Origin: an uncultured Bacilli bacterium
GTDB lineage: Bacteria; Bacillota_I; Bacilli_A; RF39; UBA660
DNA: 64,000 bases
Reading direction: 5' to 3'
Assembly (NCBI GenBank): GCA_934153945.1
Contig: CAKPFM010000006.1
Coordinates: 27,318-91,317, forward strand
Shown here: positions 10,942 to 23,908 of the stretch, one piece after another
Position numbering within the stretch: position 1 is the stretch's first letter
How the letters are laid out: each line of letters opens with the position of its first letter
Notes under the pieces: generated by a model
The model's input: only the letters and a program-made list of their open reading frames with translations
Database searches by the model: none
What the model was told of the DNA's origin: nothing
Program-made: the position numbers and the translations under genes

Positions 10942-12010
10942 TTTTCTTCCTCATTTCTATCATATCGAGTAAAGCTTCTACTCTAGTATAAAATCCTGTT
11001 TTACTATCTTGTGAATCAAATGAAAAAAATAATATTGGTACTTTATATTCATTACATATTTTTTCTATTATAGGCATTGCTCCTATTTCTGGAGTACAAA
11101 ATGTTGATTTAATATGTATGATAGCATCATATTTATTTTCACATAAATATTTAGTTCGCGCTATATTATCACTAGCGTCAGCTCCCATTCTATATTTAAC
11201 AAATTCTTTACTATATTTTAAATATTTTTTTATCTTTTTACCTTTTTCAAATAATAAATATTTTACATTTGTAAATCTTGTTATATCAACTTTATTTTTA
11301 ATTAATAATTCTTCTAAATCATTATTTCCAAATGGTTCCATAACTGTAAATAATTCCCCAATTATTCCTATTCTTATTCTATTTTCTGGTTTTTCTAATT
11401 TTACTTTTTTTATTTTTCTAAAGTATTTCAAATAATTATACATCAAATTTATATAGCCTTTATTATTTTCAAATTTATTTAATAATTCATTATATATTTT
11501 CTGCATTTCTTTTTCTTTTTCAAAAGCTAGATTATGTCTCATATAATCTTCTATTTTATCCATACAAAATACCATTCTTTTAGTTATTAAAAATCGGTAT
11601 AGTGCATTTATTAAAGATAATTTAGGATTAATACTTTTAAATTTTTTTAAAATTTCTTTTATATTAGTTTTACCTTTACTTACTAAATTTATATAGTTAA
11701 CATCATATAAATCTTTTAAAATATTTTCTTGTAATTCATAGTAATATCCATATCTACATCCACCACCAAATTGTACTACAGTATCTGCTCCTTTATTTAT
11801 AGCTTCTATAAAAGCTCCTAGTGTATATTTAAATGGCATACATACTGTTTCTGGACTATATTTAGTTCCTAACTCTAATGTTTTTTTAGTTATTTTAGGT
11901 GTTTTTATTACTTCACATTTTAGAATTTTTTTTAACAAGTATATTCCTGGTATTTGATAATTTCCCATCATAGGGAGTGCGAGTTTAGTCATGTATTTTA
12001 TTCCTTTCAA
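10934..12010 (-). CDS. Acyl-CoA dehydratase activase-related protein (DUF2229-like)
   Basis: 358-aa ORF overlapping both neighbours. Motifs ELGTKYSPETVCMPFKYTLG and GGGCRYGYYYE are typical of the uncharacterised CoA-enzyme-activase accessory domain. Confidence 0.65.
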   Translation of the reverse strand: MKGIKYMTKLALPMMGNYQIPGIYLLKKILKCEVIKTPKITKKTLELGTKYSPETVCMPFKYTLGAFIEAINKGADTVVQFGGGCRYGYYYELQENILKDLYDVNYINLVSKGKTNIKEILKKFKSINPKLSLINALYRFLITKRMVFCMDKIEDYMRHNLAFEKEKEMQKIYNELLNKFENNKGYINLMYNYLKYFRKIKKVKLEKPENRIRIGIIGELFTVMEPFGNNDLEELLIKNKVDITRFTNVKYLLFEKGKKIKKYLKYSKEFVKYRMGADASDNIARTKYLCENKYDAIIHIKSTFCTPEIGAMPIIEKICNEYKVPILFFSFDSQDSKTGFYTRVEALLDMIEMRKKNE

Positions 12011-12887
12011 TAATATCTATAAAACTTTCTAATCTAGTTATTATACCAGTCATACTATTTTCTTCATCTATCATTAGATGTAATGTTGGAATATCTACTT
12101 TTCTTAAAACTAGTGGTATTACTAAAGAATCTAAAGCACAAGGAAAAGCTGTTAAAAATAAAATTCCATCAATTTTATCTTTACACATTAGTATAGAACC
12201 TATCTCTTCTTTTGAGTATTTAAAATATAATCCTGTTGATAAAACATTACCTAGTTTATTAGTTTTATTTTTATTAAAATATTCTGAATATATTATTTCT
12301 ACATCATATTTTTTTAATGCATTTATAATTGATGCTCCTATATATTCATCAAATATATTATATGGATGCGAAACTATTAATATTTTTGTTTTTTTACTTT
12401 CTAATTTTTCTATATTTTTTCTTTCTAAGTATTTTGATTTATTTATACTATCTTCTAAAGCATATTTATATGCTTCTTTTATTTCTTTTTTACTTTTTTT
12501 TAATATAGATGACCACTTTTCAAATTCTTTTTCTTCTGTTTTTCTATCACTTAATGATACATTATAACTTATGATTGGTATATCTAGTATTTTATCAATA
12601 ATATCATAAGTACTCATATAGTTTGTACACATTTGATTATTTATTCCATAATTATCTATTCTAGGTATTAATACATAATCACATTTATCTTTTAAACTTA
12701 CAACATGTCCTAAATAGTTTTTAAGAGCTATACACATTTCATCATTACTTAATTCTATTCCTTTTTTCATTATTTCTTTTGTAGTTTTATCACTTATTAC
12801 TACATCTATATTTAGCCTTTTAAAAAAAGATAGCCACAAATCTTTATAATGATAATAATATAGACTTCTAGGAATTCCTATCTTCAT
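11985..12887 (-). CDS. Acyl-CoA dehydratase activase-related protein (N-terminal accessory module)
   Basis: MKIGIPRSLYYYHYKDLWLSFFKRLNIDVVISDKTTKEIMKKG..DEMCIALKNYLGHV matches the conserved KIGIPR..Y..W..FF..LG start of this family. First gene of a three-gene overlapping operon. Confidence 0.65.
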   Translation of the reverse strand: MKIGIPRSLYYYHYKDLWLSFFKRLNIDVVISDKTTKEIMKKGIELSNDEMCIALKNYLGHVVSLKDKCDYVLIPRIDNYGINNQMCTNYMSTYDIIDKILDIPIISYNVSLSDRKTEEKEFEKWSSILKKSKKEIKEAYKYALEDSINKSKYLERKNIEKLESKKTKILIVSHPYNIFDEYIGASIINALKKYDVEIIYSEYFNKNKTNKLGNVLSTGLYFKYSKEEIGSILMCKDKIDGILFLTAFPCALDSLVIPLVLRKVDIPTLHLMIDEENSMTGIITRLESFIDIIERNKIHD

Positions 12888-12972
12888 ATAATCACCTATT
12901 TAAAGATACGAATAATGGTTTCATTTTATGAATATTATTTTTTTATTAATCCATATTATTAATGGTGATAAA

Positions 12973-13137
12973 ATGGAGAAGGATCAAAAAATAAATTGTA
13001 ATGTTCATGATTGTGAACATTGTGATTGTGAAGGAGATTGTTGTAAACTTAAAAAAATAAAAGTTTGTAATTGTGATGGATGTGGTTGTAAAGAAACTAC
13101 TATGTGTGATAGTTACAAAGAAAAAACAAGTAAATAA
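12973..13137 (+). CDS. Small Cys-rich protein (DUF1540-like), 54 aa with 14 Cys
   Basis: MEKDQKINCNVHDCEHCDCEGDCCKLKKIKVCNCDGCGCKETTMCDSY. GGTGA SD 4 nt upstream of ATG 12973. Divergent from the activase operon and followed by a terminator. Confidence 0.6.
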   Translation: MEKDQKINCNVHDCEHCDCEGDCCKLKKIKVCNCDGCGCKETTMCDSYKEKTSK

Positions 13138-13154
13138 ATACTTGTTTTCATTTT
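13125..13154 (+). terminator. Rho-independent terminator after the Cys-rich small gene
   Basis: AACAAGTA-aataaa-TACTTGTT hairpin (the stop codon sits in the loop), followed by TTCATTTT. Confidence 0.65.
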
Positions 13155-13292
13155 AAATATATTTTTCATTATTTATCTATTTTATATTGTATATAAAACA
13201 TTTGTTTGATATAATGAATATGGATACATTTGAAATACATCAGATGCTTTCCCTTTCATTTATTTATTAATATTTGAAAGGTGGTGATATTT

Positions 13293-13370
13293 ATGACAAA
13301 AAGAGAATTATCTCAATTTATTATAATATTACTATTATTCTTTGTAATAATTATATTATTATTTAAATAA
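13293..13370 (+). CDS. 25-aa hydrophobic peptide, type I toxin-like (copy A1)
   Basis: MTKRELSQFIIILLLFFVIIILLFK. SD AAAGGTGGTGA 6 nt upstream. Promoter TTGTAT(13187-13192)-N17-TGaTATAAT(13210-15). The predicted mRNA 5' end GGATACATTTGAA is perfectly complementary to TTCAAATGTATCC just before the T-run at ~13443-13461. CCCTTTCA upstream can pair with the SD TGAAAGG. Confidence 0.65.
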   Translation: MTKRELSQFIIILLLFFVIIILLFK

Positions 13371-13484
13371 TAAAAGCATCCGATTTCACAACTTAGTGAT
13401 TTCAGATGCACTTCCAATAAGGGATTGCATTTGATTCTGACATTCAAATGTATCCTTTTTTATTTTATGGAAATACTTCCATCT
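13366..13484 (-). ncRNA. Predicted antisense RNA (antitoxin candidate) convergent with copy A1, overlapping its 3' UTR, terminator and stop codon
   Basis: Minus-strand promoter TTGTTA(13519-13514)-N17-TGaTATCAT(13496-13491). Minus-strand terminator hairpin GCATC..GATGC (13376-13409), followed by TTTTATTATTT. Confidence 0.45.
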
Positions 13485-13653
13485 ATATACATGATATCAC
13501 ATATTTTGTTTTTTAACAATGTATTTTCATTATTTATATATTTTATATTGTGTGTAAAACATTTGTTTGGTATAATGAATATGGATACGTTTGAAATATA
13601 TCAGATGCTTTCCCTTTCATTTATTTCTTAATATTTGAAAGGTGGTGATATTT

Positions 13654-13731
13654 ATGACAAAAAGAGAATTATCTCTATTTATTATAATATTACTATTATT
13701 TTTTGTAATAATTATATTATTATTTAAATAA
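13654..13731 (+). CDS. 25-aa hydrophobic peptide, type I toxin-like (copy A2)
   Basis: MTKRELSLFIIILLLFFVIIILLFK (one substitution relative to A1). Promoter TTGTGT(13548-53)-N17-TGgTATAAT(13571-76). Same SD and the same 5'/3' complementarity (GGATACGTTTGAA / TTCAAATGTATCC). Confidence 0.65.
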   Translation: MTKRELSLFIIILLLFFVIIILLFK

Positions 13732-13845
13732 TAAAAGCATCTGTTTCACAACTTAGTGATTTCAGATGCTATATCCAACAAGGGATTGCATTTGATTCTC
13801 GAATTCAAATGTATCCTTTTTTATTTTATGGAAATTCTTCCATCT
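13727..13845 (-). ncRNA. Predicted antisense RNA convergent with copy A2
   Basis: Minus-strand promoter TTGTTA(13880-13875)-N17-TATCAT(13857-13852). Terminator hairpin GCATCTG...CAGATGC (13737-13769) plus a T-rich tail. Confidence 0.45.
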
Positions 13846-13873
13846 ATATACATGATATCACATATTTTGTTTT

Positions 13874-14455
13874 TTAACAAGTTAGACTATCAAAAAAACT
13901 ATCAAATAATTTAATACTATTATCATCCATTATAGATTCAGGATGCCACTGTACTCCTATAAAAAATTTCTTATTCTTATCCTCTACTGCCTCTATAACA
14001 TTATCACTACTTCTAGCGCTTACAGTTAAAAATGTATTTGTAATATGTTCTATATGTCTACTATTAACAAATATTTTATCTTTATTTAAAATAGAATATA
14101 ATTTACTATCATAATTAATAAATACTTCATGTACATATAAATTGTTACTTTGATGATTAAAATTATTTAATTTTTCCAAAGTACCATCTACTACACTCAT
14201 CATCTGCATTCCTAAACATATACCTAAAGTTGGTATATCTTTTTCATATAAATATTTAACAAATTCTATTTCTAAATCAGTATAATCACTACCACCTTGT
14301 AATATAAATCCATCACAAAAATTAGCTATTTTAATAAATTCTTCCAAATCATTAGGATAAATACCTACACATATTTTATTATAACTATCTATTACTTTTT
14401 TTATCTCTTTATTTAAAGTATATTTATCACTATTTCTTAATAATACCCCTATCAT
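13874..14455 (-). CDS. Class I glutamine amidotransferase / peptidase C26 (gamma-glutamyl hydrolase-like)
   Basis: GICLGMQMM nucleophile-elbow Cys and GVQWHPE His-Glu motif. Confidence 0.8.
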   Translation of the reverse strand: MIGVLLRNSDKYTLNKEIKKVIDSYNKICVGIYPNDLEEFIKIANFCDGFILQGGSDYTDLEIEFVKYLYEKDIPTLGICLGMQMMSVVDGTLEKLNNFNHQSNNLYVHEVFINYDSKLYSILNKDKIFVNSRHIEHITNTFLTVSARSSDNVIEAVEDKNKKFFIGVQWHPESIMDDNSIKLFDSFFDSLTC

Positions 14456-14496
14456 TTAATCACCTATTTAAATATATGAAAAAAGAAATAAATTAA

Positions 14497-15258
14497 TTAT
14501 TTCTTCAACATAATAACAGATATATTTCTACCACTATTAATTCCTTCTTTTCTATGGGAATGAATTATATCACTATGACACTTAGTACACATATCTGAAA
14601 TAGTAATATTGTTTTTTTCTAAACCTATATTTAATAAAACATCTCTATTAATTAAAGTTGTATCAATAAAGTATTTTTGTTTATTATCTTTAATGTCACC
14701 TTTAATTATATATTCATTAATATTAATATCCGTAAATTTATTTTCAAATTCTTCTTTAAGATCTTCATCTACTTCAAAACAACATTTTAAAATACTAGGA
14801 CATATATATGCTTCTATATCTTTAGGATTACAATCATAATTTGAAATCATTAATTTAACAGCATTTTCTATTATTCTATTTAAAGTACCTTTCCAACCGG
14901 AATGAATATTACCTACTACCTGTTTATTTTTATCATATAATAATATTCCTTGACAATCAGCTAATGAAGTAACAAGCGCAATACCAGGAATATTAGTAAT
15001 TAATCCATCAACATCTTCAAAAGTATCATTTAGACTATTTTCAGTTACACATTTAACAATATTAGTATGAGTTTGAATTGGCTTAATAAATTTCATAGAA
15101 GTATTAAATATATTTGATATTTCATCATATTGTTGCTTTATTTTATCATCAGATACAAGTCCTTTTCTAAAATTAAAAGGTTTTAAAGTAAATAAATGAC
15201 ATATATTTGAATATTCATTTAATTTTTCAAATTGAACATAATTTTTATTAATTATCAT
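14497..15258 (-). CDS. pgeF: Peptidoglycan editing factor PgeF (YfiH/DUF152, laccase-domain family)
   Basis: HTNIV, DGLITN..ALVTSLADCQGILLYD, GNIHSGWKGT, CTKC...HSHRKEG..SGRN. Confidence 0.8.
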   Translation of the reverse strand: MIINKNYVQFEKLNEYSNICHLFTLKPFNFRKGLVSDDKIKQQYDEISNIFNTSMKFIKPIQTHTNIVKCVTENSLNDTFEDVDGLITNIPGIALVTSLADCQGILLYDKNKQVVGNIHSGWKGTLNRIIENAVKLMISNYDCNPKDIEAYICPSILKCCFEVDEDLKEEFENKFTDININEYIIKGDIKDNKQKYFIDTTLINRDVLLNIGLEKNNITISDMCTKCHSDIIHSHRKEGINSGRNISVIMLKK

Positions 15259-15302
15259 GATATCACCTATTTACATTATATCAAAAAAAAGAAATAAAAG
15301 CA

Positions 15303-15893
15303 TTATTTCTTTAAATATTGTATATATGATTTTATTAAATCCTCATCCATCAAATTTTTGGGAATCTCACCTAGATTAAAAAATTGCAATTTTTTTGTTT
15401 CTGAATCTCCTTTTAAATTACTTGTATCATTTAAGGAAACTTCAGCCAAATACAAAGATGTATTATTATAAACTATATCTCCATTTGGATAACTATTTTT
15501 TCTACTTTTTCCAGACAATGTATCAATCAATATTATTTCACTTGGATTTAATTTAATACCAGTTTCTTCATAGGCTTCTCTAACTGCAGTTTGTCTTAAA
15601 TTTTCTCCTAAATCTTGGCACCCTCCAGGCAACCCCCACTTATCTCGATCTGTTCTTAACTGTAATAATATTTGATTTTTTTCATTTCTAATTATTATAG
15701 CAGCACCAGTTTGAATAAATGGGATATGGTTTATTCTTTCATCTAATGACATTCTAAACAAAACCGGATATCCACCATATTTAGAACTTAATTCTAATAT
15801 TTCTTCTTCAGTTAAATTCATTATCAATTTAACAAATTCTTCATGAGTATATTCTCGCATTTTTTTATATTTATTCATACTTTTATCCTTCAA
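15303..15893 (-). CDS. NUDIX hydrolase
   Basis: Nudix box GGCQDLGENLRQTAVREAYEETGI. Confidence 0.8.
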   Translation of the reverse strand: MKDKSMNKYKKMREYTHEEFVKLIMNLTEEEILELSSKYGGYPVLFRMSLDERINHIPFIQTGAAIIIRNEKNQILLQLRTDRDKWGLPGGCQDLGENLRQTAVREAYEETGIKLNPSEIILIDTLSGKSRKNSYPNGDIVYNNTSLYLAEVSLNDTSNLKGDSETKKLQFFNLGEIPKNLMDEDLIKSYIQYLKK

Positions 15894-16482
15894 TTTCTAT
15901 ATGTTCTTTTAACATTAAATACTTATAAATTTCTCCCCAGTTATTAACATTTTTTAAGTATTCATTTTCTATTAATGGATTTGAAGCATTATTTTTAAAA
16001 TATAATGCTGTAATGTTTTTTTCTGATGCATTTAAACAAATTGTTTCATCATCATCAATTATATAATCAACTTTTTCATACAAGTATTTATCTATTTTTT
16101 GGTGTTCATTATTATATATTTTAACATTTTCTAAATTTATTGATTCAAATTTATTCAAAGCATATTTCATTTCACTATCACTTCGAGCTGTTACTATAAT
16201 TACTTCAAAATATTTTGTCAATTTAGGAATAATAATTTCAGCACCTGTCATGATATTAGCACTTTTCAACACTTCAGACGAATACCTATTATAAAATTCA
16301 CTAAATTCTGTTTGTTCCCAATTATATCTTTTTTGAAATGTTCTTTTTGTATTATCAATTATATTATCACATTTCTTAACTTCTACATCATATATTTCAG
16401 TATATACTCTATATAAATTTTCTGAATCAAATACTACTCCATCTAAATCTAATGCTATTTTTTTCATTCTTTCTACCTCCAC
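15883..16482 (-). CDS. HAD-superfamily hydrolase (nucleotidase-like)
   Basis: Motif I: KIALDLDGVVFD. About 200 aa. Overlaps the downstream NUDIX gene by 11 nt. Confidence 0.6.
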   Translation of the reverse strand: MEVERMKKIALDLDGVVFDSENLYRVYTEIYDVEVKKCDNIIDNTKRTFQKRYNWEQTEFSEFYNRYSSEVLKSANIMTGAEIIIPKLTKYFEVIIVTARSDSEMKYALNKFESINLENVKIYNNEHQKIDKYLYEKVDYIIDDDETICLNASEKNITALYFKNNASNPLIENEYLKNVNNWGEIYKYLMLKEHIEIEG

Positions 16483-23394: not shown

Positions 23395-23501
23395 AAAACA
23401 TCAATATTACTTGTACACAAAACATTTGTTTATTATAATATTTATAAGAACATTTGATGTGAGTGTCGTCCTTCAATCTTGAAAAAGAAAGGAGGGATAC
23501 A

Positions 23502-23594
23502 ATGAAGAAAAGAACTTTTACTATAAAAGTCCTTCGTCTTATTGCTATCATTTTATTACTCCTTACCTTATTGGTAATAGCAATAAAATTATGA
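23502..23594 (+). CDS. 30-aa hydrophobic peptide, type I toxin-like (copy B1)
   Basis: MKKRTFTIKVLRLIAIILLLLTLLVIAIKL. SD AAAGGAGGG. Promoter TTGTAC(23411-16)-N17-TATAAT(23434-39). 5' GAACATTTGAT..GTGAGTGTCGTCC pairs with 3' GGCGACATTCAC..ATCAAATGTTC, followed by CCCC plus a T6 run. Confidence 0.65.
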   Translation: MKKRTFTIKVLRLIAIILLLLTLLVIAIKL

Positions 23595-23698
23595 CACTCT
23601 TTCATCTCTGATTGAGTGTCAATACTAATTTTTTAGAGGCGACATTCACTTGCAGAATCAAATGTTCCCCTTTTTTATTTTATGCAAGAATACTTGCT
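23583..23698 (-). ncRNA. Predicted antisense RNA convergent with copy B1
   Basis: Minus-strand promoter TTGTAA(23733-28)-N17-TGcTATTAT(23710-05). Hairpin GACACTC...GAGTGTC (23593-23620), then ATAATTTTATT. Overlaps the toxin stop codon. Confidence 0.4.
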
Positions 23699-23908
23699 AA
23701 ATACATAATAGCATAAAAAAGAACTTTTTACAAGTTCTTCTTTATATCTATTAAACTATAAAACAATATATTAAATCTAATATGTTGATTCAAATAAAAA
23801 AATATCAATACTACTTGTATACAAAACATTTGTTTGCTATAATACTTACAGGAACATTTAGTTGTTGAGTGTCTACCAAATCTCTTATAGAGAGGAGGTT
23901 TGATAATA

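Follow-up and report, generated by a model that had tools for sequence, protein, structure and literature searches.

Among the described toxin-antitoxin (TA) systems of type I the closest in RNA architecture to the locus considered here is bsrG/SR4 of the Bacillus subtilis SPbeta prophage. Nucleotides 1-35 of the bsrG mRNA pair with nucleotides 232-262, and the antisense RNA SR4 opens this helix, P1 (PMC3834814). Binding of SR4 also lengthens the stem that holds the Shine-Dalgarno sequence (SD) from 4 to 8 bp and decay is dependent on RNase III (PMC3834814). Type I loci are known for tandem duplication, one of their hallmarks (PMC2887945), and the database T1TAdb holds 24 families, with genomes reported in the literature and 218 species. 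The locus considered here lies in a window of 64 kb, the whole stretch of DNA analysed (contig CAKPFM010000006.1 of an uncultured Bacilli bacterium, positions 27,318 to 91,317), which has a GC content of 24%. It consists of two tandem units of 361 bp, each of which is likely to be an autonomous type I TA module. As judged by sequence comparison the toxin family is probably new, and probably a superfamily, within a system that is itself probably of a known kind rather than a new one.

The two 361-bp units were first noticed in a reading of the letters alone (the original prediction) and were recovered both by pairwise alignment and by Tandem Repeats Finder, the latter as a two-copy repeat at 13163-13880 with a period of 361 bp, 2.0 copies, 94% matches and a score of 1306. 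A 39-mer that spans the stretch from the SD to codon 7 has exactly two occurrences in the 64 kb, compared with none in 100 shuffles. Each unit comprises a sense promoter, an mRNA of ~240 nt with an open reading frame (ORF) of 25 codons, a hairpin followed by six U residues, and a convergent antisense promoter and terminator. The original prediction had likened this arrangement to the type I architecture of txpA/RatA, bsrG/SR4 and hok/Sok-like loci, a view supported by the finding that the small-ORF mRNA, the lock between its two ends, the occluded SD and the antisense gene are conserved as one block in ~95 units. In an alignment of 95 full units conservation extends from the sense -35 to the antisense -35 and collapses outside, so that the two-promoter block is the unit of selection.

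Homologues were sought with a degenerate DNA pattern (an SD, 4-11 nt, then ATG-ACN-AAR-AGR-GAR), and what it gave for family size, host range and copy number per genome should be read as minimum figures. Nine true homologues came from the metagenome scan, and at least 94 intact units in at least 76 species-level assemblies from the genome scan. All the hosts listed are metagenome-assembled genomes labelled as uncultured Bacilli, Erysipelotrichaceae, Tenericutes or 'Mycoplasma', and the sources among the matches listed were rabbit, goat, sheep, cattle and human gut. Pattern matches to RimP-like, HU-like and other proteins starting with MTKRE were rejected as unrelated, as was a hydrophobic ORF of 33 aa, MTKREFIENALMWLAFPVTLFGGMVIVVKVMGC, that is identical in three metagenome contigs of 43% GC (L011:2093, L018:39 and L025:1505) and may represent another family of small membrane proteins.

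The ORF of unit 1 (13293-13370, + strand) encodes the 25-residue peptide MTKRELSQFIIILLLFFVIIILLFK followed by TAA, and that of unit 2 (13654-13731, +) encodes its Q8L variant MTKRELSLFIIILLLFFVIIILLFK; both are preceded by the SD GAAAGGTGG. The charged N-terminus and single transmembrane (TM) helix ascribed to the peptide were borne out in both units, there being 16-17 consecutive hydrophobic residues between K/R residues and one predicted TM helix. Among 105 units there are 69 distinct peptides, nearly all of exactly 25 aa, with the consensus MTKRExS[QL]FIIILLLF[FL][IV]VI[TI]LL[FL][KR], and the ORF is constant at 25 codons in the 94 full intact units. Could the ORF nevertheless be incidental, and the locus a non-coding intergenic repeat or structured RNA, resembling a miniature inverted-repeat transposable element or a pair of small RNAs? 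The module is a highly structured, multi-copy, intergenic block of ~330 bp, its ORF was never called by gene callers, and an exact look-up of the 25- and 29-aa peptides in a collection of 15 billion proteins gave no match; in the searchable literature nothing but two chance matches to the peptide strings turned up, both in unrelated papers. However, over codons 6-25 variability is far lower at codon position 2 than at position 3 (entropies of 0.62, 0.28 and 0.88 for positions 1, 2 and 3) and 47% of pairwise codon differences are synonymous. The SD is conserved at a fixed distance, indels occur in both untranslated regions (UTRs) and never within the ORF, and the other frames are closed, frame +1 being stop-free in none of 84 sequences. 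Divergent paralogues, described below, also keep an SD and a hydrophobic ORF in the same place despite a different peptide sequence. The non-coding explanation was rejected as extremely improbable, and the variability by codon position shows an ORF that is evidently translated.

A sigma-A-type sense promoter had been claimed for each unit and can be read in both, in unit 1 (13187-13215, +) as the -35 TTGTAT (13187-92), a 17-nt spacer and the extended -10 TGaTATAAT (13207-15), and in unit 2 (13548-13576, +) as TTGTGT, 17 nt and TGgTATAAT. It is placed alike in homologues, of which 71/95 units have TATAAT as the -10 and 75/95 the upstream TG. Promoter-like hexamers are common in DNA as low in GC as the window, with 21 found against 15.5 expected, and the promoters are credible only because their position is conserved in homologues, motifs in a single sequence being unconvincing by themselves. 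The toxin mRNA of unit 1 is predicted to be ~240 nt in length (13222-13461, +), with a start placed from the -10 and from the onset of conservation, which runs in the homologue alignment from GGATAC to the U-run; that of unit 2 would occupy 13583-13822 (+).

Both mRNAs are predicted to be very highly structured, with minimum free energies (MFEs) of -72.2 kcal/mol (z = -10.1) and -76.3 kcal/mol (z = -9.6) for units 1 and 2, whereas dinucleotide shuffles give about -35. The 13-nt complementarity that the original prediction saw between the mRNA ends was found as an inverted repeat and in the MFE fold of both units. In unit 1 the 5' arm (13222-13234, +; GGATACATTTGAA / GGAUACAUUUGAA) pairs with the 3' arm TTCAAATGTATCC at 13443-13455, and in unit 2 13583-95 pairs with 13804-16. 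The second long-range pair that it proposed, between a segment near the 5' end and one just after the stop codon, likewise emerged from the inverted-repeat search as ATCAGATGCTTT with AAAGCATCCGAT. The 5' switch segment AUCAGAUGCUUU (13239-13250, +) has two alternative partners, 13373-13384 in the post-stop segment and 13427-13435 in the left arm of the terminator, and the two pairings are the alternative MFEs of the two units. Sequestration of the SD by an upstream segment was also seen in the predicted folds, as a hairpin (13252-13284, +) in which the anti-SD CCUUUCA (13252-58), separated by a loop from the SD UGAAAGGUGG (13275-84), pairs with UGAAAGG of the latter both in the two complete mRNAs and in the nascent leader. 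At 71 nt the leader is already predicted to fold the 5' hairpin and the anti-SD hairpin. The intrinsic terminator of the unit 1 mRNA (13422-13461, +) is a hairpin at 13422-13455 (-14.4 kcal/mol) followed by U6 (13456-61), and that of unit 2 a hairpin at 13783-13816 (-14.5 kcal/mol), also with U6. The right arm of this terminator doubles as the 3' arm of the 5'-3' helix, because of which terminator and lock are mutually exclusive.

The original prediction had made conservation of the 5'-3' complementarity in homologous loci one of its tests, and the helix is indeed kept there with compensatory changes. The MFE folds of homologues contain the 5'-3' helix in 90/95 units and a paired SD in 92/95, with a median z of -10, the exceptions to the conserved fold being copies with a replaced 5' or 3' part. 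Covariation was examined in an alignment of 65 representatives less than 92% identical to one another (mean identity 72%). RNAalifold recovered the structure from this alignment only in part, missing the 5'-3' helix, and named helices were therefore tested directly. In the 'locked' structure, comprising the 5'-3' helix, the switch with the terminator left arm, the anti-SD helix and the post-stop hairpin, 91.4% of cells were paired and 18 pairs had changed on both sides, a result reached in 0/500 shuffles and compared with 31-43% paired in slid controls. The alternative pairings, of the switch with the post-stop segment and of the terminator hairpin itself, were 90.4% paired with 11 double-change pairs (0/500 shuffles; slid controls 24.5-48.7%). 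Among the individual elements, the 10-pair core of the 5'-3' helix was 96.7% paired with double changes in five pairs, the anti-SD helix 89% paired, and the mRNA terminator hairpin 88% paired with double changes in six pairs; the hairpin that serves as antisense terminator and post-stop hairpin had double changes in 8/12 pairs. Column 56 (C/U) shows covariation with each of the two columns it can pair with, 210 and 265 (CG 27 / UA 21-22), and for the 3' arm covariation of its columns is seen with the 5' end as well as with the terminator left arm. Each of the mutually exclusive helices is thus under selection, the signature of an ordered folding pathway such as has been described for hok and aapA3.

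The opposite strand had been credited with a promoter and a terminator, and the former was found by promoter scan, the latter as a hairpin and T-run in the fold. In unit 1 the antisense promoter (13491-13519, - strand), found by the scan together with its TG, has the -35 TTGTTA (13519-14), 17 nt and TGaTATCAT (13499-91), and in unit 2 (13852-13880, -) the same TTGTTA-17-TGaTATCAT was found. The terminator hairpin of unit 1 (GCAUCUGAAAUCAC..GUGAAAUCGGAUGC, 13376-13409, -; -16.7 kcal/mol) is followed by UUUUAUUAUUU (13375-13365). Bounded by the conserved promoter and terminator, the predicted antisense RNA of unit 1 lies at 13368-13484 (-, ending at ~13370) and has a fold z of -4.3; that of unit 2 lies at 13729-13845 (-), with a terminator hairpin at 13737-13769 (-15.4 kcal/mol). 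The antisense RNA had been expected to cover the stop codon, 3' UTR and terminator of the mRNA over a length of ~120 nt; the overlap stands, being ~92 nt and perfectly complementary in unit 1, and the predicted length becomes ~115 nt. Of the homologous units 85/95 have the TG of the antisense promoter and 88/95 its 17-nt spacer, and in 77/95 the position of the -10 varies by no more than ~5 nt. The antisense 5' stem-loop (13467-82 in unit 1) is present in 94/95 units, with the compensatory variants CAAG/CUUG, GAAG/CUUC and GGAA/UUCC.

The strand on which a helix pairs better also differs between elements. The post-stop hairpin is better paired when read as the antisense strand (95.1% vs 92.1% for the sense strand; G-U pairs 33 vs 10), whereas the switch helix is better paired on the sense strand (93.8% vs 86.4% antisense). 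It was further noted at the outset that the 5' part of the antisense RNA has the same sequence as the mRNA 5' end, which is true and follows automatically because the RNA is antisense to the 3' arm. The resulting suggestion, that antisense RNA and mRNA 5' end compete for the same 3' partner, has an experimental precedent in the opening of helix P1 by SR4. When the antisense-bound region was masked, SD accessibility fell from 0.17 to 0.09 (mean of 90 units), so that binding of the antisense RNA should not activate translation and should instead yield a substrate for RNase III.

A mechanism can be proposed from these features. A constitutive extended -10 promoter would produce the ~240-nt mRNA for a single-helix membrane peptide of 25 residues, the presumed toxin. 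The 5' hairpin and the anti-SD hairpin would form during transcription, so that the ribosome-binding site would be hidden from the start, and the post-stop segment and terminator hairpin would be made next, the latter releasing the transcript. After release the terminator right arm would swap to the extreme 5' end to give the 13-bp 5'-3' helix, and the terminator left arm would pair with the 5' switch segment, the outcome being a compact, translationally inert and probably nuclease-resistant mRNA. From a convergent promoter 30 nt past the mRNA end would come the ~115-nt antisense RNA, with a 5' stem-loop, complementarity to the entire 3' UTR and, at the stop codon of the toxin, a terminator of its own. 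Pairing over ~92 nt, it would displace the mRNA 5' end while the SD remained sequestered; the long duplex is a potential RNase III substrate, by which the toxin mRNA would be removed. Should the antisense supply fail, mRNA from the stable pool would undergo processing or opening and be translated, with damage to the membrane by the peptide as the result. By analogy with bsrG/SR4, txpA/RatA, hok/Sok and aapA/IsoA, both RNAs would be transcribed, the peptide would be toxic, decay would depend on the duplex and an activation step, for which processing, heat or standby binding may be considered, would lead to translation.

The genes around the units are of housekeeping and sporulation type. The immediate neighbours are a Cys-rich ORF of 69 aa (12928-13137, +) and a class-I glutamine amidotransferase gene (13874-14455, -), which is convergent. 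With a short ORF, alternative RNA structures before it and a terminator after it, each unit looks superficially like an attenuator, and might be taken for a leader peptide or cis-regulatory leader of a neighbouring gene. However, no same-strand gene lies downstream in the window, where the next gene is convergent, and the module has a convergent promoter of its own. From one locus to another the flanking genes and their orientations are almost always different, and no conserved co-oriented gene was found downstream; the 445 flanking ORFs form 351 clusters, and even the commonest neighbour is present in no more than 5 loci. The leader explanation was rejected as the least probable of those considered. 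Among the other loci only L103 (unit L103:1551) shares the CoA-enzyme-activase neighbours of the window (DUF2229/HGD-D/BcrAD, L103:1775-4045), and there the unit lies at the opposite end of the CoA-activase operon, which points to independent insertion rather than orthology. An orthologous 'empty site' was looked for and none was found. The window locus, with both units, recurs with 0-2 single-nucleotide differences in seven human-gut metagenome contigs, a Hadza sample being among the sources.

Two observations concern these neighbours themselves. The Cys-rich ORF, directly upstream of unit 1, has repeated CxxC motifs and a weak, sub-threshold match to DUF1540 (E = 0.2), is followed by its own hairpin and T-run at ~13125-13155, and is a called gene in 7/7 metagenome copies. 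On the other side the stop codon of the glutamine amidotransferase gene adjoins the -35 of the unit 2 antisense promoter (13874-13880), both being on the same strand, and read-through from that gene could boost antisense transcription of unit 2.

The copies behave like an autonomous, selfish-like element, which bears on what the module does. Among the matches listed, 60/76 assemblies have one copy and at least 16 have two or three, often one per sub-type, while tandem arrays with a spacing of 346-363 bp have arisen independently in other lineages. Frameshifted copies occur in L039, L099, L130 and L140, and for 25/94 units the nearest contig end is no more than 500 bp away. A profile search brought to light five internal partial copies ('orphan antitoxin' remnants at L055:5792-5961, L078:6107-6279, L046:5668-5840, L113:5252-5348 and L121:6038-6148), every one of which has preserved the 3' UTR together with the antisense gene and promoter but no longer has the toxin promoter, 5' UTR or start codon. 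No internal copy with the opposite truncation, keeping the toxin and losing the antisense gene, was seen in that search; two copies have a replaced 3' part. Orphan antisense and orphan toxin genes number 5 vs 2. Although the numbers are small, partial copies that keep the antisense gene are what the logic of a TA system would predict, and they give an indirect hint that the peptide may be toxic.

A number of observations must be set against the reading of the units as TA modules. The consensus promoter scan did not list the sense promoter, because its -35 is weak and matches at only 3/6 positions, and a simple terminator scan called none of the mRNA or antisense hairpins, which have a 9-nt loop, a bulge and an internal loop. 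The SD is paired in every predicted state of the mRNA. Although 96% paired, the 5' local hairpin showed no covariation beyond that of shuffles and is treated as unproven; the shuffle control moreover ignores phylogeny, and the counts of doubly changed pairs are thus strong support and not a formal probability. Conservation of MTKRE and of the SD is a matter of ascertainment, because the search pattern fixed both. Many Bacillus and C. difficile type I systems are phage- or plasmid-associated; in contrast, the 722-bp region had no match to plasmids or phages by blastn, and the four pattern matches on viral contigs were all to unrelated longer proteins, so that the family was found on none of them. 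Finally, the charge of the peptide is N-terminal, its C-terminal end being a single K or R where many Gram-positive type I toxins typically have a charged or polar tail, and its very strong conservation between species could also suit a small membrane protein of the cell.

The last of these points leads to the main rival explanation, that the peptide is a non-toxic conserved small membrane protein, such as one that modulates a membrane complex or a micro-protein of stress or sporulation, tuned by mRNA structure and a cis-antisense RNA and forming no addiction module. Conservation across at least 76 species, the setting among housekeeping genes and away from phage and plasmid DNA, the single copy in most of the assemblies listed and the absence of a charged C-terminal tail would all be in keeping with such a role. 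However, there is no conserved partner gene or operon, and copy number is variable, with tandem arrays, side-by-side divergent paralogues and frameshifted or truncated copies. The three layers of repression (paired SD, lock and antisense RNA) are typical of cases where any expression is harmful, and it is the antisense gene that partial copies preferentially keep. A non-toxic membrane protein is considered unlikely.

It has also to be asked whether the peptide is released and has an extracellular role, as a cytolysin like the phenol-soluble modulins, a pheromone or something bacteriocin-like, with an antisense RNA that merely regulates its output. With its charged n-region and hydrophobic core it resembles a bare signal peptide, and the type I toxins PepA1 and SprG1 are also secreted cytolysins (PMC6563280); this explanation overlaps with the type I TA reading and does not exclude it. 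On the other hand there are no adjacent genes for export, processing or immunity, the neighbours differ by locus, and the RNA architecture is that of toxin mRNAs and not of peptide-pheromone genes; as a separate explanation it is very unlikely.

The TA module reading gains a wider setting from a third, divergent paralogous module in the window, which nhmmer detected at 23411-23733 (+) on a search with the profile of the family (E = 8e-7). Its parts are a sense promoter at 23412-39 (+), an mRNA at ~23446-23676 (+) with a 5'-3' helix, a sequestered SD AGGAGG and a U-run (fold of -74.2 kcal/mol, z = -8.5), an ORF at 23502-23594 (+) for the 30-aa peptide MKKRTFTIKVLRLIAIILLLLTLLVIAIKL, and a convergent antisense promoter TTGTAA-17-TGcTATTAT from 23733 to 23705 (-), with an antisense fold z of -4.3. 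Close homologues of this module, with 87-90% DNA identity, occur in L035, L097, L117 and L120. Modules for peptides of 27-30 aa (MRKSEKYLCSIIILLIIVILIILIKIVPTV, MNKKDFLI[LT]SLIIL[IL]FLL[VI]LLLFIVLI and MKKKDLLISFLILIIILLIVSVMILCIKK) also adjoin 25-aa units at L117:2347-3023, L142:4650-4847, L060:689-894, L079:5120-5324 and L140:1100-1301, which suggests that clusters of related modules exist. As related modules carry other peptides, the RNA scaffold is common to several peptide families. It is held with slightly better than even confidence that the 25-aa MTKRE family and the 27-30-aa families sharing its scaffold together form an undescribed type I TA superfamily, apparently restricted to uncultured low-GC gut lineages of Bacilli, Erysipelotrichaceae-like bacteria and 'Tenericutes', in which the terminator hairpin is recycled as the 5'-3' lock and a duplicated switch (CAGAUGC twice and its complement twice) gives a conserved multi-state folding pathway resolved by antisense strand displacement. 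If this is true, few Gram-positive type I toxins would be as small as this peptide, which has 25 residues and is charged at the N-terminus only.

If confirmed, the family with its several paralogous sub-families would be added to the 24 of T1TAdb, and type I TA biology would reach uncultured gut lineages that have no genetic system. With three-way covariation of mutually exclusive helices the ~95 natural variants constitute a ready-made model for co-transcriptional folding and antisense strand displacement, and the 25-residue peptide with its cognate RNA might make a compact cassette, for counter-selection or as a kill switch, in low-GC Firmicutes. No concept is overturned, the proposed mechanism being an established one.

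The novelty of the toxin family, raised in the original prediction, is supported by the lack of any match to Pfam or NCBIfam type I toxin models or to Rfam antitoxin families, under conditions in which control toxins matched models of their own. When 75 peptides were searched against Pfam and NCBIfam models at E <= 1 no type I toxin model was matched, and the matches obtained were weak and to unrelated families, mostly models of membrane proteins. The controls were toxin sequences of 29-59 aa. Hol_Tox (PF16935) was matched by 0/75 peptides at this threshold, compared with E values of 2e-8 for BsrG and 2e-7 for TxpA; Fst_toxin, Ldr_toxin and type_I_tox_Fst had no peptide match, whereas Fst, PepA1 and LdrD matched their own models; and the Hok/Gef and TisB models had none either, against control values of 1e-21 for HOK_GEF and 2e-9 for TisB. 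Two further controls, ShoB and AapA1, matched no model. Scanning both strands of 11000-16000 with cmscan at E <= 10 gave no match to an Rfam antitoxin family, those of RatA, SR4 type, Sok, Sib, RdlD, IstR and SprA1as included, and only one chance snoRNA match elsewhere. PADLOC and PHROGs had no matching model, and the sole matches of a profile search of PDB were to de novo TM helices, at E > 1.

The gene organisation is that of the 3'-overlapping type I TA systems of Gram-positive bacteria. As in bsrG/SR4 a long helix joins the mRNA 5' end to a segment in the 3' part, the SD is sequestered in a stem, the 3' part is covered by a convergent antisense RNA, and SD accessibility drops on antisense binding, here according to the masking computation. 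BsrG, however, has 38 aa and matches Hol_Tox, whereas the peptide here has 25 aa, is charged at the N-terminus and lacks a polar tail at the C-terminus. The lock here uses the right arm of the terminator as its 3' arm, while in bsrG the terminator is a separate one downstream of helix P1; a length of ~115 nt is predicted for the antisense RNA, compared with ~180 nt for SR4, and the modules are not prophage-borne. A convergent antisense RNA over the 3' end and stop region of the mRNA of a small hydrophobic toxin is also shared with txpA/RatA, bsrE/SR5, yonT/SR6 and the CD-RCd systems of C. difficile, an arrangement of genes summarised in T1TAdb and in a review on Clostridia, but their toxins have 28-60 aa and charged C-termini, are often prophage-borne and have no sequence match here.

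With hok/Sok and aapA/IsoA the modules share a lock between the 5' and 3' ends, covarying metastable pairings and an SD hidden co-transcriptionally (PMC6733600). The antisense RNAs of those two systems lie within the 5' or ORF region of the mRNA and act on a 3'-processed active form, whereas the target of the antisense RNA here would be the 3' UTR, with the 3' arm of the lock as part of it; Hok, moreover, matches HOK_GEF and the peptides here do not. In Fst/RNAII (par of pAD1) and SprA1/SprA1as the interaction takes place outside the overlap by way of 5' repeats, and the Fst-family models match Fst and PepA1 but none of the peptides here. As at this locus, however, these two Gram-positive systems have a structured toxin mRNA with its SD sequestered and convergent transcripts that share a terminator region, their toxins are small (30-33 aa), and tandem chromosomal copies occur in some species. 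The logic of the modules thus resembles that of bsrG/SR4 and of hok but would have arisen with an unrelated toxin.

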